This document shows, piece by piece, positions 6,028-37,651 of a DNA stretch of 64,000 bases; the first letter of the stretch is position 1; every line of letters begins with the position of its first letter. This DNA comes from a virus. Below the pieces are notes generated by a model that saw only the letters and a list, made by a program, of their open reading frames with translations, was not told where the DNA came from and ran no database searches. Position numbers and translations under genes: made by a program. Where the stretch lies: positions 4,677 through 68,676 of IMG/VR virus record IMGVR_UViG_3300050821_014313. The stretch is one strand, 5' to 3'.

Positions 6028-8280
6028 ATGGGCGCAGCAGAGAAAGTATCCCGTTACAATCTTATAACTGGCGAGGACACTTACGCCTCCCAAACCTCGC
6101 AGAACCCTGCGACCGCACGTAAGCTCGCTTCGTGGATTCCCGCGGACGACGGCCAGCTCACTCGCGAGTTACTAGACGTAAAATTTAACACCACGCAGTT
6201 GTCTGGGCCAGTAGTTGGACTTTACGAGTACGACTGGAACGATCTGACTGGTACGGTCAACCGAACGTACTTCGCCGCTGCTCGCACCGACTTCAACCCC
6301 GGGACGCAAACCTGCAACTTATACTTCTTCACCACTGCTGGGCCGTTCGTCCAAGTCGCGTCGAACCAAACCACAATCAATCCTCTTGCTGGAGTCCCAG
6401 CGTGCGTGACCATCAACAATCTTTTCCACGTCACCGACGGCTCGTACTCGTACGTCTACGACGGCCCAAACAACGTCTGGTACATCGAGGGGTACTTCAC
6501 TACGACTGAGTTCGGTTCAATCGACACGCAGTCCGCAGGCAGCTTAACTCTTGCGATCGGACGTTACTACTGGATCGGCTACGCCGATCACACTCACAAT
6601 CATGAGTCGGATGCGATTACGTTCTTTCCTTTGGGCTCGGTGAACACTCTATTCACCGGTCCGATCACAAGTAAAGAAGTCAAAGTCTATCCGTTTACTG
6701 GACTAGCCTCGTGCTCGCCTGGATCAGGTATAGTTACTCGCTCGTCTTCGGGCGATAATCCAGGTCCGTCTGCGGCTCAAGCCACGCTACTCATTCAACC
6801 TGGATTTTACGATCCTAGTCGGATTCGTTTTGGTGTATGGATAAACGGGACACAGCTGACAGACAGTTTTGGAAATCCAGTCTACGTCGTAAACAATACT
6901 CCGGTGAATCTTGTTCTCAACGCGCATCCGACGCAGACGATTACAAACGGTCGCGCTGTGTTAGCTCCGTTGAAAACTACTCACTGGCATTTGTATGCTA
7001 GCGAGGTCGACGGCTCGCAGGTTGGACAACAGCTCGGAGAGATACCGTTAACGCAAAACTTATCCACAACTCCGTTTATCGATCAGGATCCGGGGATTAG
7101 TTCACCTTCTTCGTTGTTTCTTCCGATTTTTCGTCCAGTACGCAACGACGAGCCGCCGCCGAGCAAGATTCTCGAGGTGCACAAGTACCGTCAGTGGAGA
7201 GTACGTAAGAATCGACCGACGTTCTTCTCGTTCTCGGCGAACGAAGAAGTAACTTCGGGCGCGAATGGCTCTCCGCAAGAATCGTGGCCAGGGACCGATA
7301 CGATCTACGGAACGTTCTCGGACATCGTAAACGAGTACCCTTATCCTGATCAGTCGAACAACATCCGTGCGCTGATTAGTCACGCGGACGCGTTGTATAT
7401 CTTCTCGGAGAAACAAGGACTGCCGCTGTATGGAGAATCGCTAGACGACTTTGCGCTCTCGCAGGTCACTGCGTTCGCAGTTGGCATTGCTGGACAATTC
7501 GCCGGAACAAGCACCCCAAGCGGGCTCGCGTTTCTCTCGTACGACCGTATGCTCTTTCTCTACCCGACAAGCAATTATCCCTGGGCATACGTGCCAAAAG
7601 ACGTCAACGTCACCGACTCGTTAATCGACATCGGCAAGCCGCAACGTAAGTCTTGGGAGCAGATTCAGTTCGCCGATATGAATAAAACCTGGGTCCGTAA
7701 CTACCGTTTCGGCCGAAGAAACTGGTTGGTAGTCTCGGCAGTGCTCAACTCGACTTCTTGGCAGACTCTAGTCTACGACTTCAACACAAAAGGCTGGTTC
7801 CATCTCCAGCAAGGGTTTCAGTCGCTTGCGACGTTCGAGGTTAGCAATGGAGCGAAGATTCTGGTTGGCGGAGGCAGCGATGGGTTTGTTTACGTCGCTG
7901 ACGATATCTCGGGAACTTATGTTTCTACTGGCCCGCATCCGAATGCGGTATGGCGACCAGCGTTGATCGACTTTGGCGCGCCCGATGACAAGCATGTGTT
8001 TATGTACGTTGAGTTGGAGTTTTCGTCGCCGGCTCTTGAAGCCGACACTCGAATCAACTACTACCTCGATCCTCCCGACGTCGACAACCCCGGGACTCCA
8101 CGAACGCTCATCTTACAAAAAGTTAAGAACGTTGGGGCTAATCTTTATCGTGGCTGGGCGACTGGTGGGAACGCTTGTCATCGTTTGCTTCTCGAAGTCA
8201 ATACTGCCGCGAGCACGAACGTAGGATCGATCCGATCGGCTAAGCTCGTTGCTTGCAAGATCGTAGGGTTGGTGAACTAA
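6028..8280 (+). CDS. tail nozzle / DNA stabilization protein (P22 gp10 or T7 gp12-like)
   Basis: 750 aa, beta-propeller-like repeats, LVYDFNTKGW motif, follows the adaptor gene. Confidence 0.7.
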   Translation: MGAAEKVSRYNLITGEDTYASQTSQNPATARKLASWIPADDGQLTRELLDVKFNTTQLSGPVVGLYEYDWNDLTGTVNRTYFAAARTDFNPGTQTCNLYFFTTAGPFVQVASNQTTINPLAGVPACVTINNLFHVTDGSYSYVYDGPNNVWYIEGYFTTTEFGSIDTQSAGSLTLAIGRYYWIGYADHTHNHESDAITFFPLGSVNTLFTGPITSKEVKVYPFTGLASCSPGSGIVTRSSSGDNPGPSAAQATLLIQPGFYDPSRIRFGVWINGTQLTDSFGNPVYVVNNTPVNLVLNAHPTQTITNGRAVLAPLKTTHWHLYASEVDGSQVGQQLGEIPLTQNLSTTPFIDQDPGISSPSSLFLPIFRPVRNDEPPPSKILEVHKYRQWRVRKNRPTFFSFSANEEVTSGANGSPQESWPGTDTIYGTFSDIVNEYPYPDQSNNIRALISHADALYIFSEKQGLPLYGESLDDFALSQVTAFAVGIAGQFAGTSTPSGLAFLSYDRMLFLYPTSNYPWAYVPKDVNVTDSLIDIGKPQRKSWEQIQFADMNKTWVRNYRFGRRNWLVVSAVLNSTSWQTLVYDFNTKGWFHLQQGFQSLATFEVSNGAKILVGGGSDGFVYVADDISGTYVSTGPHPNAVWRPALIDFGAPDDKHVFMYVELEFSSPALEADTRINYYLDPPDVDNPGTPRTLILQKVKNVGANLYRGWATGGNACHRLLLEVNTAASTNVGSIRSAKLVACKIVGLVN

Positions 8281-8843
8281 TGGCCGGAAGATACACTCGA
8301 GTCAATCGTGCGTTGCCTACAATCACAAACGTTGGCCAACTCCAGCAATACATGGCGACGTGGAAGAACACAATTACTCGCGCGTTGAAGCGACCAGCTC
8401 CTCCGCCGCCACCGCAAAACTTCACCGCAACCAACTCACGAGGTGGGATCGTGCTTACGTGGACCCCTGGAAGCTTAGTCGGCACGCACAACGCCGGAGT
8501 GATCTCGGCTCCTGGCACGCCCGACGGATACGAGATCGTAAAATCGCCTTCGGGTAACTTCATGAGTGACCTGACGATTATTCCGATTCGCGATCCTGCT
8601 GCAACAACTTACTTCGACTCGGTCGGCGGGCACCCGCAAACAGCAAGCTACCGCATACGCACTACCGCAGGTACTCCGACCAGCTCGTACGCTCAACACG
8701 GTCCCGAGTCTGGCGTGGTCACTCACACCAGCATCGACAGCAGCGATACTTCGACCACGCCTACGAGCAAACGCGACAACTACACAAGCGATAAGGTTCG
8801 CGCGACAGCCTCGCGCGGTCGTTATGGAGCGTTTCTACAATGA
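8280..8843 (+). CDS. virion protein with fibronectin type III-like domain
   Basis: PPPPQNFTAT...IVLTWTP...DGYEIVKS...YRIRT pattern; TAATG coupling to the nozzle gene. Confidence 0.6.
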   Translation: MAGRYTRVNRALPTITNVGQLQQYMATWKNTITRALKRPAPPPPPQNFTATNSRGGIVLTWTPGSLVGTHNAGVISAPGTPDGYEIVKSPSGNFMSDLTIIPIRDPAATTYFDSVGGHPQTASYRIRTTAGTPTSSYAQHGPESGVVTHTSIDSSDTSTTPTSKRDNYTSDKVRATASRGRYGAFLQ

Positions 8844-9999: not shown

Positions 10000-11865
10000 G
10001 TGGCAGGATCCGATAACACAGACGCGGTTAATGCGGTCGCGAGCGGAAACGATCCGTTTCAACTAGGCACGACCTCGCTTAAAAAGGGCAGGAGCTCGTT
10101 GTTTCCGGCTCCGGCCGGCGACGCCTCGACTCAGCCACCCTTGCCTTTTGGTCCTCAGCAAGACGCAGCAGTAGTCGCCTCGCAAAGCAACAGCGACGGC
10201 AGCTCTACGCATCTCGTGCATGTTCCTCCAGCGATTCACGCAGCAGTGAAAGCACAGAATTCAGCAGTTAAGCCCGAAGCAGATTCGACAGCGATGAAGG
10301 TTGCGCCAGAAGCAGGCTTGTCGGGTCAGCAAGGAGCAGCAGCTGACGGCACTGGCAATGGCTCTGGGCAGAGCTCAACTACTCCTGTTGGCGGTCGAGC
10401 CGCGCGCCCTACTACCGAAGCCGCCTCAACAACTCCAGCTGCTGCTGGCAACCCTGGCGAGCCCGATGTTTCGTCGATTCAAGCCGGAGGTCAGGACGAA
10501 GCCGCGAAAGCTGTTGCTCAGCAAGACAATACTGCGCTACCTACGCTCAAGCCTCAAGGAGGTTCGTCTGCGATTGCTCGCTTTCTTTCCCGCTTTAGTG
10601 GTACTGCTGGGCCAACTCCCGACCCTGGGGAAAAGTATACGGGCCCGACGAACCCGACAGAGTTAGCGGCTAGCGAGAAAGCCTCGCCGTTGGGCAAGCT
10701 TGCGTCGATTGCTGGTCGTGTTGGCAACGCCGCGATGGCCGTAGGCGGCACGCCCGAACAAAAACAAATCGCCGAGCAACGCGCAGAGTTCGTGCCGAAG
10801 ACTCAGCTTGAGTTACAGGCACTAAAGAACGAACAAGCGTTTCATGGCGCGATGGCAACAGCTGCTTTGCAACGAGCGTCGACTGGCGAAGAAAAAGCGC
10901 AAGAGATAAAATCGAAAGACACTGCCGCGATGCGCGCCAAAGGCTACGTTCCAGACGAGAGCGGTGTGGGTTATCGTGCGATGACTCCAGACGAAATCAT
11001 GAACGACCAGACTCTTCGTCAGAAGCAGGATCTCGCGACGGCCGCAATCAGCCTAAAGTCCGCGCAGGCTCAAGCTCAGCGTGCGACTGCTGACTTCAAC
11101 ACGAACCCCGATAACGCCCGACTCAAGCAAATGCACGAAGAAGCAATGAGCAGGCTCGCGATCGCTCAATCCAACATGCACATCGCGCAGGGTCGCTTGG
11201 GCTTAGAAGCTCAGAACCAAGCGATGCACGGACAAGAAGACTTGCTTAACCTTGGCCGGAATCCTTTGACTGGCGAGATTGCTGGCCAGGGTCCGACGAA
11301 GCTCCCGCCAACCATGATGGCTGATGCGCAGAACAATCCTGTGCCTTACAAAGGCCAGTCGATTTACGCACCAACTCAAACCATGAAGAACGCATCGGCT
11401 CAGGCACAGATTGTTAAGGCTGAGCTCGATCCAACAATCGCAATGCTGCAAGCGCAGCGTGACGAGATCGGACCGGTTATTGGTCGATGGAACGCTTGGA
11501 CGCAAGGCCAGCTTGGTGTCGATAATCCTTCGTTCGCGGCGTTGCAAGGCAACCAAACTATGATGGCGACGGCGCTCGCGCTGATGCATGCTCGCGGTCG
11601 CTTACCCGACAACCTCCGTATCGAATTCGACAAGATGATCAAAGCGCCACAGCAATCGCCCGACAACCTAATCGCGACGCTGAACGCGGTTGCGCCTTGG
11701 GTCGACGATATGGTGAAGCAAGGAAAGATTCCTGAGTACGGAGAGACTCCAGCCGGCGCGAAAAGTCCAATACATAAGGCTGCGGCGGCCGGCGGCGGCA
11801 GCTCCTCGGGCTCTTCGCGCAAGCTCTCTCCCGAAGAATGGGATAAGCTCCACGGAGGTCGCTAA
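10000..11865 (+). CDS. internal virion / ejection protein
   Basis: 621 aa, Ala/Gln-rich helical composition, AAGGAG RBS with GTG start. Confidence 0.6.
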   Translation: MAGSDNTDAVNAVASGNDPFQLGTTSLKKGRSSLFPAPAGDASTQPPLPFGPQQDAAVVASQSNSDGSSTHLVHVPPAIHAAVKAQNSAVKPEADSTAMKVAPEAGLSGQQGAAADGTGNGSGQSSTTPVGGRAARPTTEAASTTPAAAGNPGEPDVSSIQAGGQDEAAKAVAQQDNTALPTLKPQGGSSAIARFLSRFSGTAGPTPDPGEKYTGPTNPTELAASEKASPLGKLASIAGRVGNAAMAVGGTPEQKQIAEQRAEFVPKTQLELQALKNEQAFHGAMATAALQRASTGEEKAQEIKSKDTAAMRAKGYVPDESGVGYRAMTPDEIMNDQTLRQKQDLATAAISLKSAQAQAQRATADFNTNPDNARLKQMHEEAMSRLAIAQSNMHIAQGRLGLEAQNQAMHGQEDLLNLGRNPLTGEIAGQGPTKLPPTMMADAQNNPVPYKGQSIYAPTQTMKNASAQAQIVKAELDPTIAMLQAQRDEIGPVIGRWNAWTQGQLGVDNPSFAALQGNQTMMATALALMHARGRLPDNLRIEFDKMIKAPQQSPDNLIATLNAVAPWVDDMVKQGKIPEYGETPAGAKSPIHKAAAAGGGSSSGSSRKLSPEEWDKLHGGR

Positions 11866-13271
11866 TGGCCGAAGACAACAGCGATCTGACACAAAATCCA
11901 ACTTTTCAGTCTTGGCCTAGCGAGAAGCAGCACGCGTACTTGCTGGATCAGTCTCCTGCTTACGCGGGGTTTCCCGCCGACAAGCAGAACGCGTACCTAA
12001 GCTATCTGAACGGCAAGCCGACGTACGGTCCGCACCAAGCAGCAGCTGCACCCAAGCCTACTCCTACCTCGCAAGCTGATATTTCTCGCGGTCTGAGCAA
12101 GCTTCCTCCGGTTGAGTTCAACGATCTAAGCTCCTACGGCAACGCAACTATTTCTGGGCTCGACTCGGTTGGTCGTGGAGTGGCTGGAGCAGCGTCTGCT
12201 CTTGGTAGTGCTATTGCTCATCCTTGGGACACAATTCGCGGGATCAAGAATGCGGTTACTTCGGCCCCGGACACGCTCTCACAGATTCCAGCAGCTGTTA
12301 GCGACATAAACTCCTCGGCAGATCCGATCAGTGCTTACGGCAAGGTTGCGCAGGAAACTGCTGGCCAAGGTGCGGGTCAAGCAGCAGTCGCTGCCGCAAC
12401 TATGGGTTTACCTAAGCTCGCTGGAGCTGGAGCTCGCGCTCTAAGCAGCGGAACTGGTATTCCTGGAACGGCTTCGCGAGTGCTCCAAACTGGCCTAAAA
12501 ACTGCCGAGAACTTTGACGTGACGAAGCCGGGGAAATCTATTGGTGCGATCGGTGATACATACGAGTCTACGTCTCAGCCTGGGCGATTACTCTCAGCGA
12601 CGAACAAAGCAGTCGAGCAAGGCCGCGCGAATCCAGTGAAAACTGTCATTCCTACAGACGCTGAGCAAGCGATCAGCGAAGGCCGTGCGAATCCATTACC
12701 AACAAAACTCAAGCCACAGCCTACACCAGCTGAAGCCGCAATTAAATCAGGTAAGGCTTCGCCTCTGCGCACTCGCATACCAGCTTCAGTTCTGCGCGAG
12801 CAACCTCCGACTCCGCCGGAAGAAATCGCTCGTGCCGCTGCGCTCGACAAAGTACTCAAATCGACCCCTGGCAACCTCGCGAACGTTCCAACGCCTCCTG
12901 GCAATGCGGCAGTTCTAGGCGACCTTGGTCCTTCTGCGCCTCCACAAGCTGAAGAGCTTGCTCGCAGACCTCTTCCTGCTGCCGAGCCGGCCGCTCGCCG
13001 CGCGTTTGAGCAATCTACTCCCGGGGCGCTCGGAGGCATTCGTCCGCCCGCCGACACACCAGCTGCCGCGATCCCACGGTCTTCTATTCCTGATGTCTCG
13101 CTTGTTCCTGAGCCTCGCTCTCTCTTCCCTGGCGAGCAACCAAACTACATGGCGAACGTTCCGCGCGAGGAGCTACCGGGACTCGCCGACATCGCTAAGC
13201 CTGGGGCTGGTCAGCAGCTACAGCAGCTTGGTAAACGCGTGATTTATATTCCTCGGGAGGCGCTGAAGTAG
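11865..13271 (+). CDS. internal virion / ejection protein
   Basis: N-terminal tandem repeat (FQSWPSEKQHAYL / YAGFPADKQNAYL); Pro/Ala-rich C-terminal half. Confidence 0.55.
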   Translation: MAEDNSDLTQNPTFQSWPSEKQHAYLLDQSPAYAGFPADKQNAYLSYLNGKPTYGPHQAAAAPKPTPTSQADISRGLSKLPPVEFNDLSSYGNATISGLDSVGRGVAGAASALGSAIAHPWDTIRGIKNAVTSAPDTLSQIPAAVSDINSSADPISAYGKVAQETAGQGAGQAAVAAATMGLPKLAGAGARALSSGTGIPGTASRVLQTGLKTAENFDVTKPGKSIGAIGDTYESTSQPGRLLSATNKAVEQGRANPVKTVIPTDAEQAISEGRANPLPTKLKPQPTPAEAAIKSGKASPLRTRIPASVLREQPPTPPEEIARAAALDKVLKSTPGNLANVPTPPGNAAVLGDLGPSAPPQAEELARRPLPAAEPAARRAFEQSTPGALGGIRPPADTPAAAIPRSSIPDVSLVPEPRSLFPGEQPNYMANVPREELPGLADIAKPGAGQQLQQLGKRVIYIPREALK

Positions 13272-15029
13272 ATGTCTACTCCAAATCTTATCCCGCAACC
13301 TGCGGTCCCGCCCGAAGCTTATGTAAAAGGCCAACCGATAGGTAATTCCGTTACCCGCGAAGGTGCGCCCGACTTTGATCGTGAAGACCAGCTGCCGCTT
13401 CCGCCGTCGACCGACCCGATCTCACAAGGCGCAGTCGCGTTCGGATCTCAGGTTGCCGAGAACGCCAAGACGTATCCCCAAAATCTCAAGGAGGCTTACG
13501 ACAAGCGCAACCAACCGGTTAAGGACCAACTAAAAGACGCAGTAAACAACAACACGCAACCAACTTACTACAGCCGTACTCCTCTTGGCGGTGCGGCTTC
13601 ACCAATCAACACTGGTGAGAGTCTCGCTGATGTGTTTTTGCCTCCACAGCACACGCTGGCTGGCGAGCATCCGCACGTAGCCGCCGCGGCTCTCGACGAG
13701 CACACAAAAAACTCTTTCTCGGTTTTCGATCCGCGGACCGGCGAGAGCTTAGCCGGAGCACGTAAGTGGGCGGTGCCCGTAGCTCCCGAAGCCTCGCAGA
13801 TCTCGATCAAACCGCCAAGCGTGGACGACTACTCGAACTTCGTCGCTACTCACCGAGACTTATTCGACCGCAACCCGAACGCCGCCGTCGGCACGCACAC
13901 CGATCCGTTAACCGGACTGCATCACCTGAATATCGTTGGCACGACGTCCTCGAAGAACGCAGCTCTTCAGGCTGCTGACCAGCTTGGTGAGCCTGGAGCG
14001 ATGCATCTCGGCCGAACCGAATTCGCACCTAGCAGCGGCAACCCCCGTCCCGACTTCATCGGCCAACCAATCGATACTCGGCTTAATCAAATGCGCTTGG
14101 CCGATCCTCCTTCCGAGCCGTTCGCCGGTACGCACTACTCCGACACCAAAATGGATTTCATCGACGGCTCACGTCGCGGCCAACCGCAAGAGCCCAAGCT
14201 TAAGGGTCCGAACGCTCCTCCGCCCGCGCCAGCTGGAGCTGAATCCGCGCGAGTTCGCCTGGGCTCGGCAAACGGAGTGCCTGACGCTGACGCTCCACCG
14301 GGATTCTACGTCTACAAGTCCGGATCGCTTCCGGACCCGTCGATCGCTAACCGCCGCTTCGCGCATTCTGTGCAAGGAAACTTCAGCTTCGCTAATATCA
14401 AGACTGAGCCTGCGTGGCAGGAGGGGCTAAAAGATGGTCTGGCGAAAGCGACCGCAGCCGGAGCGGACCCACAGACAGCCTCTGGCATTGCGCTCAACTC
14501 CGCGGAACACTCTCTTCGTGACGCTGGTTTTGACGGCTACTACAATCCTGACCACCCTAATTCGCGTTTCATCTTCGATTCGCATCCGACTGCTCCTTTG
14601 GGCGCTCGAACGCAAACGCCAACGACTGGCGGCAAGCTCGCGGCCGAAGCAGTAACAACACGAGTCGCCGAGCAGAAGAAGGCTACCGAAGCTGCACAAA
14701 AACAATCTATGGCTGCTTCTTCTGCTGCACAAAACCCCTCGAAAAAGGGGGTTTCAGCAAACAGTGAAACACCCTCTCCGACTGAAACTGCTCCTGGGCT
14801 AACCACCGACTCCGAGACGGTCCCAGCCTCGCTTGCCACCGCTCCTGCCGCCAACAACAGTTACATCCACGCGATGGATTTGGCCGCGAAGAACCGAGAC
14901 GACGCAACGTATTTTGGACGCAAAACTGCGGCTCCGGCTCCCGACGCGCACCTTCGCCCCGACGGCGATCCAGCGGGTCTCCTCGAGCCTGGGGAACTCG
15001 TACGAAATCGTTTAGCTGCTATGAGGTAA
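13272..15029 (+). CDS. internal virion protein with a possible ADP-ribosyltransferase-like (polyvalent-protein) domain
   Basis: GTHYS...GFYVY...AEHSLRDAGFDGYY pattern; last gene of the ejection cluster. Confidence 0.45.
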   Translation: MSTPNLIPQPAVPPEAYVKGQPIGNSVTREGAPDFDREDQLPLPPSTDPISQGAVAFGSQVAENAKTYPQNLKEAYDKRNQPVKDQLKDAVNNNTQPTYYSRTPLGGAASPINTGESLADVFLPPQHTLAGEHPHVAAAALDEHTKNSFSVFDPRTGESLAGARKWAVPVAPEASQISIKPPSVDDYSNFVATHRDLFDRNPNAAVGTHTDPLTGLHHLNIVGTTSSKNAALQAADQLGEPGAMHLGRTEFAPSSGNPRPDFIGQPIDTRLNQMRLADPPSEPFAGTHYSDTKMDFIDGSRRGQPQEPKLKGPNAPPPAPAGAESARVRLGSANGVPDADAPPGFYVYKSGSLPDPSIANRRFAHSVQGNFSFANIKTEPAWQEGLKDGLAKATAAGADPQTASGIALNSAEHSLRDAGFDGYYNPDHPNSRFIFDSHPTAPLGARTQTPTTGGKLAAEAVTTRVAEQKKATEAAQKQSMAASSAAQNPSKKGVSANSETPSPTETAPGLTTDSETVPASLATAPAANNSYIHAMDLAAKNRDDATYFGRKTAAPAPDAHLRPDGDPAGLLEPGELVRNRLAAMR

Positions 15030-15070: not shown

Positions 15071-15580
15071 GTGAAGGAGATCAAGCTAAATAAAGGGTAT
15101 GTTGCTTTGGTCGACGACGAAGACTACGAACGCGTTTCCAAATTCAACTGGCGTGTGTCTCTGCACAAGAAAAAGAAAACACCTTATGCAGTCGCGATCG
15201 TGAAACTGCATCGTTTGGTGATGAACGCAGATGCTTCTTCGCCTTCGGTCGATCACAAGAATCGTTATGGCTTAGATTGCCAGAAATCGAATCTTCGTTT
15301 TGCTACACGATCGCAAAACGCAGCGAACCAAAAAAGCCACCGCGCGAGTTTCAGCAAGTACAAAGGAGTCCAGTGGCACAAAGCGTCCAAGAGCTGGATG
15401 AGTCGGATTATGCGAGAAGGAAAAGTCTGGACTAGCTATCATGCAACCGAGCTCGAAGCAGCTCTAGCTTACGATTCGATTTCGCGTGCGTTGGATCGAG
15501 AGTTCGCGAACCCGAATTTTCAACTTTGTCCGTTAACAATTAAGAAAGAGAGCTATACATATGTTCGCCATGATGCGTAA
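15071..15580 (+). CDS. HNH homing endonuclease with AP2 DNA-binding domain
   Basis: ALVDDEDYE, LHRLVM, VDHKNR..LDCQKSNLRFATRSQNAAN, SKYKGV..W, EAALAYD motifs. Confidence 0.9.
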   Translation: MKEIKLNKGYVALVDDEDYERVSKFNWRVSLHKKKKTPYAVAIVKLHRLVMNADASSPSVDHKNRYGLDCQKSNLRFATRSQNAANQKSHRASFSKYKGVQWHKASKSWMSRIMREGKVWTSYHATELEAALAYDSISRALDREFANPNFQLCPLTIKKESYTYVRHDA

Positions 15581-17696
15581 GCTTACTCTTCTTACGCTCT
15601 TGTTTTTGAGCGTATGCTCGCTCGCTCAAACCGTTGCGGTCTCGGGAACTCTCCAAACTATGGGCCCGAGCGGCCCGAACCCTGGCTCAAACAACGACTT
15701 CGTAGTCTTTCGTCTAAAAAACTGGCAAGGTGACCTTCCTCGAGTTATTGGGGTTGGTCCGATTGACCCTCTAAGCTACACCATCACTCCCGACTCCAGC
15801 GGCAACTTCTCGACGACGTTTTACGGCAACGACCAAATTACTCCACTGCATACGTATTATGTTTTTGAGCAATGGCACGACGGCAAGATCCAGTCGTCTG
15901 CGAACTACCAGTTCTGCGTCAACGCGAACTGCACTCAAGGTCTCGCCGCCAAGTGCCCATGCAACATAAACACACAACCGCCGCTAGCGGCCTCGCCTAA
16001 CCAAGCGCTCAACGTCGCTCCTCTCCTCACCCTAAACAACATCTGGACCGGAACAAACACGTTCAACGGCCCAACGATCTTCAACTCCTCGATCGTCTTC
16101 AACTCGCTAATAAACACTTGCGATTTGAACGGTGCGCTTATTGTCAGCGCGGGATGCTACTCGACTCCTCAGCTCGCGATCAATGCTTTGCCTGGGTCGG
16201 GTGGAACAGTCCTCGTTGCTCCTGGCACGTACTCTGGCCCAACTTCAATCCCCAACAGCAATACCTCGATTGAATGCGCGACTTGGCTCGGGTGCACGTT
16301 TACCTACACTACGAACCTTGCGCTCGGCAACGGCACCTCGATTCTTCGCAATATAAAGTTGGACGGGATTATTTTCGACTTCGGCGGAACCGCTCATGGG
16401 ATCATCATGACCAGCTTGCAGTACAGCGAGTTTCGGATCCAAGTCCAAAACAGCTCGGCAGTCTTTCCTGCAGCTGCGTTATTGCTTACTGCCACCAATA
16501 CCGCGGGTTCGTTTTACGAGAACAAGTTCGATTGGTTAAGTATTCAGACCGGCGGCGGAAGCTTAGGCACTGGACTGATCCTGAACGGCGACCAAAACAT
16601 CTCGGGCTGCGGCGGAACGCAGGTTGGAGCTGGGGCGGTTTTCTATAATCAGTTTCATTTTCTTACGATTGGTGGGCAAGCTAGTGGACCGTCGGCCGAT
16701 GCGATCGACTTTACTTCCGGCGCGGACTCGAACGACTTTGGGCTTGTTTCAGTTATTCTTGGAACCGGAAACACTACCGGCCACGCGGTGAACTTCGGCA
16801 CTCGCTGCCCATCGAGCTACGGCGATATTGTTTTTGAGCATTTCTTTACGCTTTCGGCCAACGCAATCCAGGCGGGCTACACCGGACCGTTTATTCAGTA
16901 CGGAGACTCCGAGGGAGCGATCGATAACTACGTCTGCGGGACGAACTGCAGCGGAAGCGCGTTCCAGGGATTCGATCCAACCGCTCTCGCTGCCGGCCTA
17001 ATCAACTGGAACGTCCAAGACATTGGAGGGAACATATACTCGTTGGTTAATCCTGTTTGGGACATGAACAACGCAGCACTACACAACGAGTTGCTGATGA
17101 TCCCGCTGCCGGTCGCAACCGCTTCCAACAATTATTCCTGTCCGGTGATCAAGCTAAACTCCGCGCAGTGGACTGGAAGCGCTAACACGTACTCTGACTG
17201 GGCGTTGTCGTGCACTCTAGCTGCCTCGGGCGTGCCTACGTTCGAGAACCTAAACCTAACCTACCAAGGTCCGTCGAGCAACGTGAACTTTATCCTTGGG
17301 ACGAACATTAAGCTGGCGCTTTCGGGTGGCGGATTCAACGCATTCTTCTCCGGCAACTCGAGCATGACCGCCTCAGTCACTCTAACCACACCGCTAAAAA
17401 CCGGGACGTTAGTCGATGGCAGTAGCTCGTTTGGGTTTATGCAAGCGGCGAGCGCATCGGGGGTAGCGACGACAGGCGGAGCCGCCTGGACCGGCGCAAG
17501 CAGCTCGCCAGTTTCGTGGCCAACTCCTTTCACCGGAGCCTACAACGCAGTTTGTACCGGCGACGGAGTAGCCTCGGGCGTACCAATCTACCAAGGTACG
17601 ACTGGCCAAGTCGCAGGAGGAATCACGGTCATAACGCAGCAAGCGACTGCTGCGACCGCAAGTTTCAGCACTGTTGAGTGTATCGGTTACCAATAG
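15561..17696 (+). CDS. tailspike-like beta-helix protein with N-terminal signal peptide
   Basis: MRKLTLLTLLFLSVCSLA/Q leader; QLAINALPGSGGTVLVAPGTY beta-helix entry motif; gp53-like C-terminus (VSWPTPF...VECIGY). Confidence 0.7.
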   Translation: MFAMMRKLTLLTLLFLSVCSLAQTVAVSGTLQTMGPSGPNPGSNNDFVVFRLKNWQGDLPRVIGVGPIDPLSYTITPDSSGNFSTTFYGNDQITPLHTYYVFEQWHDGKIQSSANYQFCVNANCTQGLAAKCPCNINTQPPLAASPNQALNVAPLLTLNNIWTGTNTFNGPTIFNSSIVFNSLINTCDLNGALIVSAGCYSTPQLAINALPGSGGTVLVAPGTYSGPTSIPNSNTSIECATWLGCTFTYTTNLALGNGTSILRNIKLDGIIFDFGGTAHGIIMTSLQYSEFRIQVQNSSAVFPAAALLLTATNTAGSFYENKFDWLSIQTGGGSLGTGLILNGDQNISGCGGTQVGAGAVFYNQFHFLTIGGQASGPSADAIDFTSGADSNDFGLVSVILGTGNTTGHAVNFGTRCPSSYGDIVFEHFFTLSANAIQAGYTGPFIQYGDSEGAIDNYVCGTNCSGSAFQGFDPTALAAGLINWNVQDIGGNIYSLVNPVWDMNNAALHNELLMIPLPVATASNNYSCPVIKLNSAQWTGSANTYSDWALSCTLAASGVPTFENLNLTYQGPSSNVNFILGTNIKLALSGGGFNAFFSGNSSMTASVTLTTPLKTGTLVDGSSSFGFMQAASASGVATTGGAAWTGASSSPVSWPTPFTGAYNAVCTGDGVASGVPIYQGTTGQVAGGITVITQQATAATASFSTVECIGYQ

Positions 17697-17706
17697 GAAG
17701 ATTCTT

Positions 17707-17964
17707 ATGCCCACGCGAAAAGAAGAAATCGAACTCGCAGTAAGGTTAGCCAAAATCGACGACGGTCAGGCAGCTCTGATTGCCAAAATCGACGCCAACC
17801 ATCACAGCCTAACACTACAACTTGCTCCGTTGCTCGAGCTCAAGCAAACCGTAAAAGAACACGAGCACGCGATATCTATGTGGCGCGGAGTGAACGCAGC
17901 GATCGGATTCGTACTCACTCTTATCGTCGCACTTTACGGCAAGCTGAAGTTGTTTCACCCGTAG
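17707..17964 (+). CDS. small coiled-coil protein with a C-terminal TM helix (holin-like)
   Basis: AGGAAG RBS; hydrophobic stretch AAIGFVLTLIVALYG. Confidence 0.5.
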   Translation: MPTRKEEIELAVRLAKIDDGQAALIAKIDANHHSLTLQLAPLLELKQTVKEHEHAISMWRGVNAAIGFVLTLIVALYGKLKLFHP

Positions 17965-17988
17965 TAGAATTGCAGAAGGAGTCACTTT

Positions 17989-18414
17989 ATGCCTTTAGCC
18001 ACCGGCCCGAGCCAAAGCTTAATCACCTACGATCGCGGATCGCAGGCGGTAATTATCCCTGGCGCAGCCGCCAACGTCGCTCAAGTTGGTAACGCTCAAC
18101 CGGCTGGAACGACTGGCTACGGCGTCGTCGCAGCGTTGTCGCGCGCGATGCAACCGCCTAACCTGATGATGCAGATCGATGTTCAAGGAACCGGCGCGCT
18201 GACTTCAGCGACCGTCAATCTTCTAGGCAGCTTGGACGGTATAGCCTGGGGAGTGATTGGATCGGTAGTGATCGGCGCAGGCAACCTAGCCGCTGGCTCT
18301 ACCCAAATGGCTCCGTTTGGCGGCAACGCAATGATGCGTTACGTCTGTGCTTCGATCAGTAATCTTGTAGTCGCGTCGGGCGCACCGTTAGTCAAAGTTT
18401 CGTTCTCGATGTAA
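17989..18414 (+). CDS. putative tail/virion beta-sandwich protein
   Basis: AAGGAG RBS; VNLLGSLDGIAW and MRYVCASIS pattern; no signal peptide. Confidence 0.55.
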   Translation: MPLATGPSQSLITYDRGSQAVIIPGAAANVAQVGNAQPAGTTGYGVVAALSRAMQPPNLMMQIDVQGTGALTSATVNLLGSLDGIAWGVIGSVVIGAGNLAAGSTQMAPFGGNAMMRYVCASISNLVVASGAPLVKVSFSM

Positions 18415-18430
18415 AGGAGAGTTTTCGGTC

Positions 18431-21400
18431 GTGATCAAGAATCTTATTCGCATCGCGTTACTTCTCTCGATCCTTCCGATCTTTTCTGTCTTCTCGTCCG
18501 CTCAAGCCAACTACAACTTCAACGTCGGAGGACTCGGGTTCAACTCTGGACCGGCAGTTCCTGCGTCGTGCGCCCAAGACGGTTATAAGTTCTGGCTAAA
18601 CACTGGATCGATCGCTTGGTACACGTGCAAGGCTGGGACGTACGTGGTCGACGGCAGCGGGACCGGCGGCGGCACAGTGACCGGTGTAACCTGCGGAGCC
18701 GGTCTCAGCGGCGGTACTTTTACGACCTCGGGCACCTGCGCGATCGCGACCGGTGGAGTAACTTTCGCGATGCTCGCCGCGGCCACAAACTTCGTTACGA
18801 TCGCCGGAACAAGCGTGAGCTTAGGCACAGCAACGAGCAGTCTACCTTCGCCAGGAGCGATCGGTTCCGGCACGCCAAGCACCGGTACGTTCACAACTCT
18901 TCAAGCCAACACTCAGATCAACGCCGGAACAGCAGGAGTGCTTGCTCCGATTATCTTCGGTAACGCGACCAGCGGACTGATTACGCTACAGCCTGGGCCC
19001 GGGGCGATTACCTCTTACACTCTCGATTTGCCAATCGCGCAACCAACCGTAGGAAACACCTTCTTAAGCTGTACCGCAGCCAACCCGTCGGTCTGTACGT
19101 TCACTGCTGGCGGCGCGCTGCCGGCTGGCTCAGCTCCCCAAATCCTAATCAACCAAGGCGGCACAACCTACACTCCGAACTCTGTCTCGGGCGATTCGAC
19201 TCTGGCCTCGAACGGCGCAATGGCTAACATCGGGTTGACGTTCTCGGGCGCGGTCGATATTCCGCTCGGCGCTGCTCCAGGCACAGGTAACTGCCTCGGC
19301 TACAACGGGACAAACATCATCGGACTAACCTGTGGCGGTAGCGGTAGCTTACCAACCGGTATCCAAGGTGCCGACGCTCTCAATCTTTCTGGCTCCTCAA
19401 CGTACTTCGCGAGCTCTTCCGCGCGCATCGATGCGACATCGTTTTGCGCGACAGTCAACGGCGCTTCGACGTTCGCGAATGGTTACTGCACTGCCGGCGT
19501 CGACATGTGGCAGGCGATTACTGCTGCGATCGCAGCCTCAACAACCTCTACTCGATCGGTGCTGATTGACGCTCGAGGCTTCTACGGCACGCACGTTATT
19601 CCTGCGTCCTCGCTCACTCAAGCTCTTCTTGGCAACCTCTCGGGCCCGAACTCCCCCGGCGGTGAGATCTGGCTCGGTAACGTCCGGATGTACATCGACG
19701 GTCCGGTGCTCAGCAAGACCTCAACTACCAGTTTCTCGTTCAACGACGGCACCGGGAACAACGGAACTTACCCCGGGACGCCAGCATTGCTTCTGCCTGA
19801 GCGCGTCGCTCTGGTTGGCATTGGCTTCCGGCCGCTTGGCGGAACCGGCGCAGTCTTCGATATTTGTACCGGCGCAGGCACGCCGAACGGCAGCTGCACC
19901 AAGCCGTTCCCGCAACGCTCGTGGCCAATCAACTCGACCAGCTGTACCAACCATGTTTGCACAATCTTAATCGACGTCACGGCTGGCAATGCTTTTGGCT
20001 GCGGCGGAACAGCTGCTTCTTGCGACCCAACCGCAATAACCTCGATCTCACCTGACGATCAATCCGACGCGATGCCAGTTTGGATTACCAACACTGGCTC
20101 GGGCTTGTGCACTCCGCTCTCGTGCAAGATGTACGCAGGAGGCGTGACGAGCACGGTCGCGCGCGTTGGCAACCAAGCGACGATCGTCGTAACTGCTGCG
20201 GTCCCAGACATCATTCCTGACTCCGCTATGACTTGTGCTTCTTCGTGCGGTACGCTCAACGCACCAACGCCAATGATCGGGCTAGCCAACGGCGATATTT
20301 CTTCTGGTACTTGTCAAGCCTTCCCGACCCTAGGCAACGGTGGAACGTCTCCCTGCGCATACACCGATCTTTCGCACGGCACTGGCGCGAACAAAGTCTG
20401 TTACGGTTGCTATCTCCGCCAGATTGGTTTACAAGGCGAGTCGTACGAAGGCTCGATTGGATTCGAAGACAAAAACGGCCAGGAACGTAGCGGAGCAGAC
20501 CATGTTGGCTTCGCGAACCTCGCTTGGGCATACATTATTCGTTCCGTCCATGCGCAGAACGGCGGACCGTGGGCTGACTTCGAAATGGACGCTGGATCGG
20601 TCTGGACCGATTGCGAAGGCCACGGCATGGGATGGATCCAGGCTGGCGCGAGCATTCGCGGTATCTGGCACGCAACCTACAACATCGGCGGAGGCTGCAA
20701 CAACGGGGTAGTAGGGTACGTAGTTGACGGCGGCCGCGAAAACCTCGACACGCTGTACACTGCGGGATCGCAAGTCGGAATCTTGCTTGGCTCTCAGTCT
20801 GCGACCTCGGGCCTAAACATTCTCAACGGCGGCTGCGGCGCAACCGGCCAAAACCTCCAGTGCCGTCAAAACGGAATCGAGTTCAGTAACCTCGAGGGAG
20901 GCGTAACCGACACGACGGTTCTCGGTTACACCATGATCGAGCAGGCTCAATTCACTCCAGCGAACACTCTCGCGACGGTCACCTTCGCCGCCAACACCGT
21001 CACTCTTACCTGCGTCAACACTGACGGTCACTGCACGGGCGGCACGAACTTCCCCGCAGCTTACACTCTGGGCTCGTTCATCAACGTCACCGCGTGCACC
21101 AACCCAAGCAACAACACGTTGCCGGGAATCGCAACCTGGATCACCGCTGGCGGAGCAGGATCGACAACGCTCAGCTACACCAACACCGCCGGAGTAACTG
21201 GTGGAACCTGCACTGTCAATCCCGCAACCTGGGTGACCGCTCTGCTTAACAACGGCTCTGGGCACTCGACCGGCGCAGACAACCAAATCGGTCTCTACAC
21301 CTACGATAAAAACGGCAACATCATTCGCGAGATCTCGACGAGCACAAACTTCCCGTCGACCGACGGTAGCGCGTACAACTTGATGATTGCTGCAGGTACG

Positions 21401-21823
21401 ACGCTCGCGACTGCTACCTGTACCGGCTCGACTGCGGTCCCGGGCATGGCGTGGCCAATGCTAGCGAACAAAAACTACCGCCTGAGCTGCGATCTTCCTC
21501 TTGTGCTTACTGGCGCTGCGACTGCCGCGGTCTGTCTAAACGGTCCCGCCGGTCCGATCTCGTACAACCTCGATCTCTTCGGTGCGCTCGGGGCGGCCGG
21601 CGCTTGGCAGGAAAACTCGTTGTTCAACCAAACATCGTACTTAGTGCACACTCCTGCGTCGGCTGCGTTCGCTGGCACACAAATGTCGCACGTCGCGGCT
21701 GAGATTCAAAACGGCTCAACCGCGTCGAGCACGAACCTAACCCTGCAAATCTCGAACGTCGCAGCGTCCGGAACGGTTCAGGTCGGCGCGAACGCCGCTT
21801 GCACCTTCCAACAGATGAACTAG
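18431..21823 (+). CDS. large Cys-rich tail fibre/adhesin with signal peptide
   Basis: 1130 aa, Thr/Gly/Ser-rich; leader MIKNLIRIALLLSILPIFSVFSSAQA; fibre motifs GGGTVTGVTCGAGLSGG and PGAIGSGTPSTGTFTTL. Confidence 0.7.
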   Translation: MIKNLIRIALLLSILPIFSVFSSAQANYNFNVGGLGFNSGPAVPASCAQDGYKFWLNTGSIAWYTCKAGTYVVDGSGTGGGTVTGVTCGAGLSGGTFTTSGTCAIATGGVTFAMLAAATNFVTIAGTSVSLGTATSSLPSPGAIGSGTPSTGTFTTLQANTQINAGTAGVLAPIIFGNATSGLITLQPGPGAITSYTLDLPIAQPTVGNTFLSCTAANPSVCTFTAGGALPAGSAPQILINQGGTTYTPNSVSGDSTLASNGAMANIGLTFSGAVDIPLGAAPGTGNCLGYNGTNIIGLTCGGSGSLPTGIQGADALNLSGSSTYFASSSARIDATSFCATVNGASTFANGYCTAGVDMWQAITAAIAASTTSTRSVLIDARGFYGTHVIPASSLTQALLGNLSGPNSPGGEIWLGNVRMYIDGPVLSKTSTTSFSFNDGTGNNGTYPGTPALLLPERVALVGIGFRPLGGTGAVFDICTGAGTPNGSCTKPFPQRSWPINSTSCTNHVCTILIDVTAGNAFGCGGTAASCDPTAITSISPDDQSDAMPVWITNTGSGLCTPLSCKMYAGGVTSTVARVGNQATIVVTAAVPDIIPDSAMTCASSCGTLNAPTPMIGLANGDISSGTCQAFPTLGNGGTSPCAYTDLSHGTGANKVCYGCYLRQIGLQGESYEGSIGFEDKNGQERSGADHVGFANLAWAYIIRSVHAQNGGPWADFEMDAGSVWTDCEGHGMGWIQAGASIRGIWHATYNIGGGCNNGVVGYVVDGGRENLDTLYTAGSQVGILLGSQSATSGLNILNGGCGATGQNLQCRQNGIEFSNLEGGVTDTTVLGYTMIEQAQFTPANTLATVTFAANTVTLTCVNTDGHCTGGTNFPAAYTLGSFINVTACTNPSNNTLPGIATWITAGGAGSTTLSYTNTAGVTGGTCTVNPATWVTALLNNGSGHSTGADNQIGLYTYDKNGNIIREISTSTNFPSTDGSAYNLMIAAGTTLATATCTGSTAVPGMAWPMLANKNYRLSCDLPLVLTGAATAAVCLNGPAGPISYNLDLFGALGAAGAWQENSLFNQTSYLVHTPASAAFAGTQMSHVAAEIQNGSTASSTNLTLQISNVAASGTVQVGANAACTFQQMN

Positions 21824-21835
21824 GAGGAAGAATCT

Positions 21836-22144
21836 ATGCGCAAGATCTTGGTTGCGTTAACAATCCTATACGCAATATCGATGTCTGCGACGCAGAACGT
21901 CGCGTTCAGCTGGACGCTGAGCGTTACTCCTGGCGTAACTGGACAACGCATGTATTGCGGTTCGGTCTCGGGAGGTCCGTATACGCAAAAATGGCCAGCG
22001 GTCGGCACCTGGGCGAACTCAACCGTTCGCACACATACAATCGGGTTTGGTATGATCGAGACGCACTACTGCGTGTTTACGACACTCGGTCCAACAGGTG
22101 AGTCTGGGCCGTCGAACGAAGTAGTATTTACAACCGTTTCTTAG
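21836..22144 (+). CDS. secreted single FN3-domain protein
   Basis: AGGAGG RBS; signal peptide; FSWT...GQRMY...GGPY...GESGPSNEV. Confidence 0.7.
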   Translation: MRKILVALTILYAISMSATQNVAFSWTLSVTPGVTGQRMYCGSVSGGPYTQKWPAVGTWANSTVRTHTIGFGMIETHYCVFTTLGPTGESGPSNEVVFTTVS

Positions 22145-22153
22145 GAGGATTTT

Positions 22154-22525
22154 ATGAAAAAGATTCTTGCGGTTCTCGCTTTGCTTGTGTTCGCTGCTAC
22201 GCTCTACGCGATTGGTCCTGCGTTTCCGTATTCGGTCGCGCTCGGCTGGACCGACAGCACAACGCCAAACACTACTGGACAGAACGTTTATCGTGCGCCG
22301 TACGCGAGCGGTAGCTGTGGCACGTATGCCGTCCTTACTGCCGGCGCAAACATCGCACCAACCCTGACTACCTTTACCGATACTACGGTTGTTCCTGGCG
22401 CAAGTTATTGCTATGCGACTTCGGCGCTCGAAGGCACAGCTGAGTCGGCTCTCGCGATCAGCTCGTCCAACCCCGTGCTCATCCCTCCCGCGCCTCAAAC
22501 CGGCGTGACGGCCGTGGTGCAGTAA
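22154..22525 (+). CDS. secreted single FN3-domain protein
   Basis: AGGAGG RBS; signal peptide; LGWTDS...GQNVYR...FTDTTV...YCYATSA...ES. Confidence 0.75.
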   Translation: MKKILAVLALLVFAATLYAIGPAFPYSVALGWTDSTTPNTTGQNVYRAPYASGSCGTYAVLTAGANIAPTLTTFTDTTVVPGASYCYATSALEGTAESALAISSSNPVLIPPAPQTGVTAVVQ

Positions 22526-22528
22526 GCC

Positions 22529-23050
22529 GTGGCAGACTTTGCCTATGCTATTGCGAAGGTTCTAGCGAACGAAGGAGCTTACGAGGCTCCTTCGCCGCTG
22601 GATCCTGGCGGCGAGACATATTGCGGGGTGAGTAGAAGGTTTTGGCCGAACTGGCCAGGGTGGGCGATAATCGACACTTACAAGGGCCAGGAAAGCTTTC
22701 CAAAGAATCTTGCTGCTGCTCCGGGCTTAGACGACATGGTCAAGTCGTTCTATCTAAAGAACTTCTGGCACTTCGACGGGATAGTTGACCGTGACGTTGC
22801 GGAAAAACTCCTGGACCTCTGGGTCAACCTGCCTCCCGATCGCGCCGCCAAGGTCATCCAGGCAGCGGCACGAGGGCTTGGAGAGCAGGTTGTCCTAGAC
22901 GGCAGCTATGGACCGGCTACAGAAACTGCTCTGAATCGCTGCTCCCCCACGACGTTGCTTCTCGAGCTCCGGGCTCAGCAGGCGTATCATTATGCGACAA
23001 CGGCAAAGCCCCAACTTCTCCTCGGTCTACTGCGGCGCGCAGTGAAGTAA
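22529..23050 (+). CDS. endolysin, glycoside hydrolase family 108 with peptidoglycan-binding C-terminus
   Basis: VLANEGAY...DPGGETYCGVS catalytic motif; DGSYGPATETALN. Confidence 0.85.
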   Translation: MADFAYAIAKVLANEGAYEAPSPLDPGGETYCGVSRRFWPNWPGWAIIDTYKGQESFPKNLAAAPGLDDMVKSFYLKNFWHFDGIVDRDVAEKLLDLWVNLPPDRAAKVIQAAARGLGEQVVLDGSYGPATETALNRCSPTTLLLELRAQQAYHYATTAKPQLLLGLLRRAVK

Positions 23051-37237: not shown

Positions 37238-37651
37238 CTACTTTTTTGTTGGGGCAGTTGCGGCCGGTGCTGCTGCTGGCGCTTTGGCTTTGAGCAAAAA
37301 CTTAAACCCCGCTGTGTCGGCTTCGTACTGATCCTTGCTCAAACCGCTTTCTTTCCACGAGGCTTCGATCGCCGCATCAAGCAGCTTCTGGCTGTTCTTC
37401 TCGTCGTTGTCGGCGTCGGCTTTCGCCTTGCTCAGCCGCTCGCTCAGTCTCTGCGCCTCGATTTGCAGCTCCTGCAGCCCGCCTTGAGCTTCCATCTGAG
37501 CCTTAACCGCTTTATCATGCGCGACCTCGGCTTTGAGAATCTGAGTCTCTGCTGCCTGCGACATTGGAACTTCTTTCTTTGGAGCGTCGTCAGCAAGTAG
37601 ACCAACCACGCACGCCAATAACATCACTCCGGCAAAACCTACTTTATTCAT
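37238..37651 (-). CDS. exported coiled-coil protein
   Basis: Signal peptide MNKVGFAGVMLLACVVGLLA; helical Ala/Glu/Lys-rich body. Confidence 0.6.
   Translation of the reverse strand: MNKVGFAGVMLLACVVGLLADDAPKKEVPMSQAAETQILKAEVAHDKAVKAQMEAQGGLQELQIEAQRLSERLSKAKADADNDEKNSQKLLDAAIEASWKESGLSKDQYEADTAGFKFLLKAKAPAAAPAATAPTKK

Follow-up and report, generated by a model that had tools for sequence, protein, structure and literature searches.

A short-tailed phage, probably of Acidobacteriota, whose candidate receptor-binding proteins appear to be Sec-exported and disulfide-bonded

IMG/VR virus record IMGVR_UViG_3300050821_014313 is 68,676 bases long, carries direct terminal repeats and is rated 100% complete. 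The stretch analysed here, hereafter the window, covers bases 4677-68676 of this record (64,000 nucleotides) and is nearly the whole 68.7-kb genome of a soil-type short-tailed phage, which is probably virulent and whose host is probably an Acidobacteriota bacterium. Its late block encodes two large Cys-rich proteins, here called fibre 1 (711 residues) and fibre 2 (1130 residues), and two small fibronectin type 3 (FN3)-like proteins of 102 and 123 residues, all four opening with predicted signal peptides. On the evidence of their sequences and relatives, these proteins are very likely exported and, with good but lesser probability, disulfide-bonded; the two large ones are very probably the fibres of this phage, and it is fairly likely that they are the receptor-binding proteins of the virion. 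With a confidence that falls slightly short of even, we suggest that this phage represents a lineage of tailed phages, probably of Acidobacteriota, that builds its virion in two compartments, the whole receptor-binding apparatus being exported by Sec, matured in the periplasm by signal peptidase I and the host's own disulfide machinery, and joined to the particle when the holin breaches the inner membrane. The features concerned are as follows (window positions; predicted cuts marked by a slash).

15561..17696, plus strand: fibre/tailspike 1 precursor, 711 residues, 16 mature Cys
15561..15626, plus strand: predicted fibre 1 leader, residues 1-22, cut SLA/QT; homologous to the leader MMKKLIIATTLFLSSLPVFA/QT of sister phage G002
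15627..16010, plus strand: fibre 1 mature N-terminal domain, about residues 23-150, common to leaderless fibres of related phages
16110..17423, plus strand: fibre 1 core, residues 184-621, 55% identical to chromosomal Acidobacteriota proteins
18431..21823, plus strand: fibre 2 precursor, 1130 residues, 36 Cys, GTG start
18431..18502, plus strand: predicted fibre 2 leader, residues 1-24, cut SSA/QA
18503..18670, plus strand: fibre 2 N-terminal two-Cys module, NYNFNVGGL..SSG..VP.SC..WY.C, with C47 and C66 invariant
21380..21820, plus strand: fibre 2 C-terminal domain, residues 984-1130, C-terminal in most of 130 relatives
21836..22144, plus strand: FN3-like secreted protein (predicted), 102 residues, 2 Cys, with a leader and weak similarity to the next gene
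22154..22525, plus strand: FN3-like secreted protein (predicted), 123 residues, 2 Cys, with a leader and 13 relatives

Four late proteins open with predicted signal peptides

A preliminary description of this DNA had placed signal peptides at the start of the genes at 15561, 18431, 21836 and 22154, and the coordinates, the frames and the layout typical of Sec and signal peptidase I substrates are all as it described them. The N-termini read MFAMMRKLTLLTLLFLSVCSLA/QTVAV (15561), MIKNLIRIALLLSILPIFSVFSSA/QANYNF (18431, from a GTG start), MRKILVALTILYAISMSA/TQ (21836) and MKKILAVLALLVFAATLYA/IGPAF (22154). Signal peptides were called on three features: a basic n-region, a hydrophobic core of about 10-15 residues that is free of charge, and small residues in positions -3 and -1. 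Each of the four leaders shows all three, with one or two basic residues at its start. These calls come from the hydropathy and -3/-1 heuristics of this analysis and from conservation in relatives. Close to the N-terminus, a 10-residue Kyte-Doolittle maximum of 2.6-3.5 is reached by these four alone among 24 plus-strand open reading frames (ORFs) between positions 25 and 23050, with no other above 2.09. A stricter leader rule was passed by nine of 335 other six-frame ORFs of at least 60 residues (2.7%), and given this background the occurrence of leaders on four of six consecutive genes has P ~7e-6.

The sequence AAGGAG lies 11 nt 5' of the GTG at 18431, a purine-rich stretch precedes the ATG at 15561, and the 1130-residue frame offers no other start up to about residue 103. 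These ribosome-binding sites and the lack of later starts indicate that the leaders lie inside translated proteins. An internal start giving a leaderless fibre 1 was considered and rejected: the next ATG (M34) has no visible ribosome-binding site, and its use would truncate the conserved domain. Tat leaders were ruled out by the lack of a twin arginine (RR) in any of the four, and lipoprotein leaders by the lack of a canonical lipobox, the 'LSVC' of fibre 1 carrying Val at -1 when judged against the lipobox consensus.

Whether homologues keep the leader was a check put forward in the preliminary description, and to a large extent they do. Fibre 1 has nine relatives in a 5.8-billion-protein collection, of which eight have a leader, mostly with A/G followed by Gln at the cut, and a single one (P0013) is leaderless; counting the query and the sister-phage copy, leaders are present in 10 of 11 members. 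For fibre 2, exhaustive HMMER searching gave 130 matches including itself, which become 131 sequences when P0016/P0017 are added where they had not been counted; 78 of these 131 have leaders, and most of the other 53 begin in the middle of a domain, like fragments. For the 123-residue protein, all 12 relatives fetched (of 13 matches) have a leader, a mature start (Q)GPAFPYSV and two conserved Cys. Judged from such patterns, the view that the four are genuine precursors for Sec and signal peptidase I is supported.

Gln occupies position +1 of the predicted cut in fibre 1, in fibre 2 and in 73 of the 78 leader-bearing members of the fibre 2 family, counts that are inflated because the cleavage rule favours sites with Gln at +1. 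The 123-residue protein has Ile at this position, whereas its relatives carry Gln. By a rough heuristic, a small-x-small motif followed by Gln occurs in 13 of 39 leader-like ORFs within ~255 kb of one Acidobacteriota genome, so that Gln after the cut fits Acidobacteriota and not Bacteroidota alone. It may be common at +1 of signal peptidase I substrates in Acidobacteriota, outside the phylum of the original 'Q-rule'; this rule was described for Bacteroidota, and the available extract of the Q-rule paper does not mention Acidobacteria.

Cysteines are even in number and locally paired

A recount of mature Cys gave 16, 36, 2 and 2 for the four proteins, in agreement with the numbers first reported: fibre 1 has 17, one of them within the leader, and all 36 of fibre 2 are mature. 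The accompanying statement that the capsid, adaptor and ejection proteins are leaderless and nearly free of Cys was also borne out (1; 0; and 0, 0, 0 Cys, respectively); the nozzle-like protein has 5 Cys and no leader. The FN3-like proteins provide an internal contrast, the leaderless one having 0 Cys and the two leader-bearing ones 2 each.

The cysteines of fibre 2 are spaced as local pairs, with a median gap of 11.5 residues within sequential pairs versus 37 between them (Mann-Whitney p = 2e-4, permutation p = 0.006), and local pairing is also detected in fibre 1 (p = 0.014), in whose family C239, C245, C350 and C416 are invariant. Mature Cys numbers are even in all 10 leader-bearing members of the fibre 1 family (p = 0.001) and in 71 of the 78 of the fibre 2 family (p = 1e-14), p-values that overstate independence, since family members are related. 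The preliminary description had taken these cysteines as a sign of disulfides formed in the periplasm. Part of this holds, the even counts and local pairing being consistent with oxidative folding outside the cytoplasm, but richness in Cys alone is insufficient to place that folding in the periplasm.

Fibre 1 is the orthologue of the fibre of its phage group

A search with the capsid protein recovered three sister phages (G001, G002 and G003; 72-80% capsid identity), in each of which a fibre gene comes after the gene for a relative of the last ejection-type protein. The N-terminal domain of fibre 1 recurs at 27-38% identity in the fibres at this position in all three, and also in a leaderless 786-residue fibre of a more distant phage contig (L013). 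The fibres of G001 and G003 (355 and 383 residues), whose N-terminal domains are 27% identical to mature fibre 1, are leaderless and begin at the very residue that follows the predicted cut in fibre 1, which argues that removal of the leader exposes the same N-terminus. G002, a complete genome with terminal repeats and a 72% identical capsid protein, has leaders on both of its fibres; that of its fibre 1 orthologue is clearly homologous to the leader of fibre 1, and that of its second fibre starts at an internal Met of the mechanically called ORF. Of the five genomes compared, two have the fibre 1 leader, which is thus an add-on. No N-terminal domain of the fibre 1 type was seen in four capsid relatives that are more distant, in records that are only 27-47% complete. 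From the synteny after the ejection-type genes and the shared N-terminal domain, fibre 1 is the positional and sequence orthologue of the group's fibre, and its mature N-terminal domain is the putative virion anchor. Family searches and an ORF survey turned up no further fibre candidate in the late block. G003 (contigs L004 and L020) is classed as a provirus in IMG/VR, whereas the 75 non-structural ORFs of the window gave no integrase.

The core of fibre 1 has a different affinity. Residues 184-621 are 55% identical to proteins of 545-546 residues from two Acidobacteriota genomes, the sole genome matches of this core, so that a Bacteroidota host is not indicated. In these proteins a leader directly precedes the same core. 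Their genes have lipoproteins, a glycerol-kinase-like ORF and ORFs resembling sugar-nucleotide enzymes or glycosyltransferases as neighbours (by eye); no phage genes were seen nearby, and the neighbourhoods are chromosomal and non-prophage. Kinship of the core with leader-bearing chromosomal proteins suggests a fold adapted to an oxidising compartment, and the likely reason for the whole arrangement is that the core was borrowed from, or shares ancestry with, disulfide-dependent secreted proteins of the host.

The core is probably a right-handed beta-helix. Foldseek searches with an AlphaFold2 (AF2) model of fibre 1, in which the leader is a helix, gave weak matches, the top ones being right-handed beta-helix enzymes and phage tailspikes (best E = 1.1e-3, none at or below 0.001). 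Fibre 1 has no Pfam or NCBIfam match, and a PDB sequence search with the family profile returned 0 matches. A depolymerase activity may be considered as a lead from this modelling.

Fibre 2 combines a conserved end with variable modules

All 19 sequences that align over the N-terminus of fibre 2 show a leader, then the two-Cys module, then a Gly-rich linker. Fibre 2 has a repeat module of ~110 residues in common with a leaderless fibre-like protein of 1969 residues and a leader-bearing protein of 805 residues. The C-terminal domain (~145 residues), likely a tip or binding domain and conserved in relatives that vary in length and N-terminal make-up, is joined to variable modules in the manner typical of fibre proteins. 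Fibre 2 has no Pfam or NCBIfam match, its C-terminal profile gave 0 PDB sequence matches, and tblastn against 50,697 deposited phage records found no match. The Atlas neighbours of the C-terminal domain are viral and serve as leads only, and a cluster look-up of 10 relatives gave 'hypothetical protein' throughout. In 401 sampled Acidobacteriota genomes, the C-terminal domain was not found (0 of 401) and the N-terminal module gave a single match with three stop codons inside it, probably spurious. That these modules were not found in the genomes searched would be in keeping with a mobile family carried by phages.

At the C-terminus of many fibre 1 family members and some fibre 2 relatives we also noted a short Cys-containing strand (..ECIGYQ, ..FICVGN, ..CLSYFIIN), whose pattern suggests a conserved terminal disulfide that would close the tip domain.

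Small proteins encoded beside the fibres

The 102- and 123-residue proteins are weakly similar to each other over their first ~40 residues (E 1e-8) and would be small secreted accessories with single FN3-like domains. Neither has a Pfam or NCBIfam FN3 match; one relative goes under the name 'fibronectin type 3 domain-containing protein' in its source. The PHROG matches are weak (0.0013 and 0.0082) and reach parts of large proteins of unknown function; among the four leader-bearing proteins and a 141-residue neighbour, only the 123-residue protein matched PHROGs, again weakly. The genes for the 141-residue protein and for a coiled-coil protein lie between those for the two fibres.

17674..17964, plus strand: coiled-coil protein, 96 residues, with a C-terminal membrane helix; small membrane-helix proteins occupy the same position in two sister phages
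17989..18414, plus strand: low-charge, beta-sandwich-like protein, 141 residues, leaderless, kept in all four sister phages at 33-36% identity

The 96-residue protein, encoded between fibre 1 and the 141-residue protein, may be a holin or another lysis or membrane-side assembly factor. One-helix coiled-coil proteins were observed at 17674-17964 of the window and at L019 14583-14897 and L020 2882-3157, with the helix C-terminal in two and N-terminal in one. The 141-residue protein has no Pfam or NCBIfam match, and the Atlas clusters closest to it come from viruses and belong to no named family. PADLOC matched none of the four leader-bearing proteins, the 141-residue protein or the 96-residue protein.

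Leader-bearing fibre-like proteins on other virus contigs

Leader-bearing, Cys-rich fibre-like proteins occur on at least three further IMG/VR virus contigs. Two are relatives of fibre 2, on contigs of 100.9 and 67.9 kb, and the third is encoded, together with a portal gene, on a contig of 9.9 kb. Beside those on the two larger contigs, more leader-bearing, Cys-rich proteins are encoded. As there are at least 78 leader-bearing fibre 2 clusters (50% identity), several of them on virus contigs, the export route may be widespread among uncultured soil phages. Additional leader-bearing proteins are clustered beside the fibres at L025 19093-22028 and L027 13882-18348, some of them Cys-rich (one of 723 residues with 22 Cys).

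The 141-residue gene lies directly upstream of a leader-bearing fibre both in the window and in G002. Leaderless, low-charge proteins of 134 and 136 residues are likewise encoded directly upstream of leader-bearing giant fibre-like proteins at L025 9597-10001 and L026 2875-3285; with an identity of just 15-24% to the 141-residue protein, their homology to it is not established. In a phage whose capsid protein is 41% identical (G406), a 513-residue protein (L040 3465-5006) has a leader-like N-terminus and a start that is probably an internal Met; its gene stands between the nozzle-like and the ejection-type ones, and of its 7 Cys one falls within the leader.

A model of assembly in two compartments and its alternatives

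The model that we propose runs as follows. Both fibres and the two FN3-like proteins would be made as Sec precursors that cross the inner membrane unfolded, and signal peptidase I would cut them at the small-x-small site, leaving Gln at +1 in both fibres. Once in the periplasm, the mature proteins would take up their fold and probably form trimers, held stable by numerous short-range disulfides. Fibreless heads with tails would meanwhile be assembled in the cytoplasm, and the anchor domain of fibre 1 would not dock on them until the holin has opened the inner membrane and the cell is lysing. The lesions that canonical holins make are wide enough to let particles through, and P22 tailspikes can be attached as the final part, in vitro as well. 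Among the models available, maturation in the periplasm with attachment at lysis is the best, and in our estimation it stands about evenly between right and wrong. We infer actual export, cleavage and oxidation, presence in the particle, and the time and place of attachment; given what the sequences offer, attachment to particles after export would be the most economical reading. The small FN3-like proteins are possibly accessories of the exported receptor-binding apparatus.

Several observations pull the other way. The same anchor domain is made without a leader in three related phages (G001, G003 and L013), and leaderless fibres of related phages carry 9 and 7 Cys. Two apparently full-length leaderless relatives of fibre 2, P0015 (1969 residues) and P0051 (985 residues), hold 28 and 30 Cys. 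Export is thus not obligatory for proteins of this kind. Disulfide networks have also been published for leaderless virion proteins, namely in phage Milano (PMC10811340) and in a siphovirus tail tube (PMC13576161). The leaderless and fragment set is itself skewed towards even Cys numbers (39 versus 15), as would be expected of locally paired Cys whether or not a protein is complete. Free secreted proteins that lack an anchor domain come closest to the core of fibre 1, and the AF2 model of fibre 1 is poor (mean predicted local distance difference test score 47), with confidence just over about residues 190-340, which form stacked strands. Pattern scans for the N-terminal module of fibre 2 gave 36 matches in IMG/VR and 226 in metagenome contigs, with no confirmed relative among them. 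Pfam searches of 75 other ORFs in the window found no phage gene for Dsb, thioredoxin-like or signal peptidase proteins, and attachment at lysis would have to compete with dilution. Full-text literature searches found no Sec-exported fibre or tailspike of tailed phages. The name 'receptor-binding proteins', given to all four in the preliminary description, is reasonable for the two large ones because of the synteny and orthology of fibre 1 and of the module that fibre 2 shares with the 1969-residue fibre-like protein; nothing marks the 102- and 123-residue proteins as adhesins.

An alternative is that the exported proteins never enter the virion and act on the envelope of the infected cell, trimming exopolysaccharide or destroying or masking the receptor. 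The beta-helix proteins would then be periplasmic or secreted enzymes or binders of polysaccharide and the FN3-like proteins carbohydrate binders, with the benefit that progeny are freed and superinfecting phages kept out. This explanation accommodates the real and conserved leaders, and the nearest relatives of the fibre 1 core are indeed chromosomal secreted proteins in which the leader abuts the beta-helix. It has parallels in WceF, an exported bacterial enzyme of tailspike fold that modifies its own producer's exopolysaccharide (PMC7949094), and in phage genes with Q-rule leaders that were interpreted as host-surface modifiers (PMC10367356). However, it leaves a phage without any recognisable fibre, and fibre 1 has the N-terminal domain and the genome position of the only fibre of the sister phages. 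Fibre 2 likewise carries fibre repeat modules and a tip-like C-terminal domain that is conserved across varied relatives, and in a host with two membranes Sec export stops at the periplasm. Display on the host had also been offered in the preliminary description; in the form of lysogenic conversion it was rejected as unlikely, Pfam having found no integrase among the 75 non-structural ORFs. Overall, we consider action on the envelope unlikely.

A second alternative keeps the fibres in the cytoplasm: the hydrophobic N-termini would direct no productive export, or that of a minor fraction, and would instead tether late assembly to the membrane or be buried in the tail, the Cys oxidising spontaneously after release. 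It draws on the leaderless relatives with many Cys, on the published networks in leaderless virion proteins and on the anchor domain that sister phages make without a leader. Against it, the leaders are conserved and show the full n/h/c layout with small residues at -3/-1, and leaderless orthologues start precisely at the predicted cut. The Gln that follows the cut in 73 of 78 family members, and in 13 of 39 leader-like ORFs of the putative host phylum, points the same way, both counts being rough and the rule favouring Gln. We consider joining in the cytoplasm improbable. That the leader-like stretches are chance or annotation artefacts, untranslated or out of frame, gains a little from the gene calls being mechanical ORFs but is extremely improbable given leaders on four of six adjacent genes against the 2.7% background, ribosome-binding sites 5' of starts with no later starts, and leaders kept across dozens of divergent relatives.

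Relation to known systems

A functional likeness to periplasmic maturation followed by attachment is offered by the filamentous (Ff) phages, whose receptor-binding protein pIII has a Sec leader, acquires disulfides in the periplasm and joins the particle outside the cytoplasm. Ff phages are assembled at the membrane and extruded through the envelope without lysis. The proteins proposed here would resemble pIII as Sec-exported, disulfide-bonded receptor-binding proteins added outside the cytoplasm; unlike Ff, the phage in question has a head and a tail, with capsid, adaptor and ejection proteins and an endolysin.

Fibres and tailspikes of podoviruses, such as T7 gp17 and P22 gp9, are leaderless and fold in the cytoplasm. 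The fibres described here are like them in their position after tail and ejection genes, their N-terminal anchor, their beta-helix or fibre body and their variable tip. The mature P22 tailspike has zero disulfides according to the available extract of its report (PMC3357383).

In architecture, there is a likeness with the MAT fibres of Bdellovibrio bacteriovorus (PMC10769870), long proteins of phage tail-fibre or tailspike type in which a conserved domain comes straight after the signal peptide and which have disulfides and tips that vary; as presented in the extract, these are cell-surface proteins of the predator, encoded outside any phage structural module, unlike here. WceF of Pantoea stewartii (PMC7949094) is an exported, trimeric right-handed beta-helix of tailspike-like fold, a counterpart to the chromosomal Acidobacteriota proteins that are akin to the core of fibre 1. 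Its leader is of the Tat type, which exports folded protein, and the extract describes no virion-anchor domain; the leaders in the window have no twin arginine and appear to be of Sec type. In Porphyromonas gingivalis phages, five genes of unknown function have a predicted signal peptidase I cut that exposes Gln, following the Bacteroidetes Q-rule, and were taken as an adaptation to the host export system and as host-surface modifiers (PMC10367356). Within the text available they are not reported as fibres, and the host phylum here is apparently Acidobacteriota.

Sec-exported and SAR (signal-arrest-release) endolysins (PMC8951688) are another example of late phage proteins that use the host Sec system before lysis. 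They are lysis enzymes and not structural proteins, and the endolysin of the window is leaderless. In phage Milano (PMC10811340) and the siphovirus tail tube (PMC13576161), bonds between Cys stabilise tailed-phage particles too; the extracts of these two reports mention no export signal, whereas the Cys-rich proteins here bear leaders.

If two-compartment assembly is true, the interval between holin action and lysis would be an assembly step, and host Sec, signal peptidase and Dsb functions would be host factors for infectivity. To our knowledge, tailed-phage morphogenesis is taught as wholly cytoplasmic, and in annotation practice a signal peptide counts as an argument against a structural role. 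Our literature searches found no precedent for a Sec-export assembly route of tailed-phage fibres. Receptor-binding proteins could then also take disulfide-stabilised domains straight from secreted enzymes of the host, as the 55% identity to Acidobacteriota proteins suggests, and pipelines that predict receptor-binding proteins or depolymerases should no longer drop leader-bearing candidates. That a signal peptide speaks against a structural role is put explicitly in one paper for hypervariable phage proteins, which its available extract describes as being without signal peptides, in contrast to their bacterial counterparts.

The late block and other features of the window

The remaining features of the late block are listed below.

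2442-3725, plus strand: major capsid protein (phrog_14242, 1.1e-48), leaderless, 1 Cys
5278..6018, plus strand: adaptor of SU10 type (PF24175, E 4.9e-13, 50.4 bits against a cut-off of 27), leaderless, 0 Cys
6028..8280, plus strand: nozzle-like or tail protein, 750 residues, directly 3' of the adaptor (weak phrog_578 match, 6.9e-5), leaderless, 5 Cys
8253..8843, plus strand: 196-residue protein with an FN3-like stretch (FN3 by eye), the 'FN3 gene 8280' of the preliminary description, leaderless, 0 Cys
10000..15029, plus strand: three large Cys-free ORFs of 621, 468 and 585 residues, putative ejection or internal virion proteins by size and position, leaderless
15071..15580, plus strand: HNH endonuclease (phrog_99, 2.1e-27; Pfam AP2 and HNH_3 matches under their cut-offs)
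22529..23050, plus strand: endolysin of family GH108 (PF05838, 2.3e-10; phrog_315, 1.2e-13), without leader or membrane helix

Searches of Pfam, PHROGs and NCBIfam gave nothing for the 196-residue protein, and none of the three ejection-type ORFs matched a family; three sister phages encode relatives of the last of them at the corresponding position. The HNH gene separates the ejection-type genes from fibre 1, with whose start it shares 20 nt. An HNH-like ORF of 155 residues was also seen on contig L025 (3361-3828), ~6 kb upstream of a leader-bearing fibre, its N-terminus being similar by eye. As the endolysin has no export signal, a hole-forming holin would be expected. In the remaining 75 ORFs, Pfam recognised a family A DNA polymerase, UvrD-type helicases, a PNKP-type phosphatase and functions of a comparable kind; the window gave no tRNA genes.

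The four leader-bearing proteins and the 141-residue protein have few charged residues and many Thr, Ser, Gly, Ala and Asn. Asp and Glu make up ~4.5% of both fibres and Lys and Arg ~2.2%, compared with 9-18% and 7-18% in most other late proteins, and this low charge may be an adaptation to an acidic extracellular milieu. In the early region, two minus-strand ORFs at 37238-37651 and 38738-39184 have lipoprotein-like or signal-peptide-like N-termini (..MLLAC.., ..AAFGSC..), with a coiled coil after it in the former, and could encode a spanin component or a superinfection-exclusion lipoprotein.

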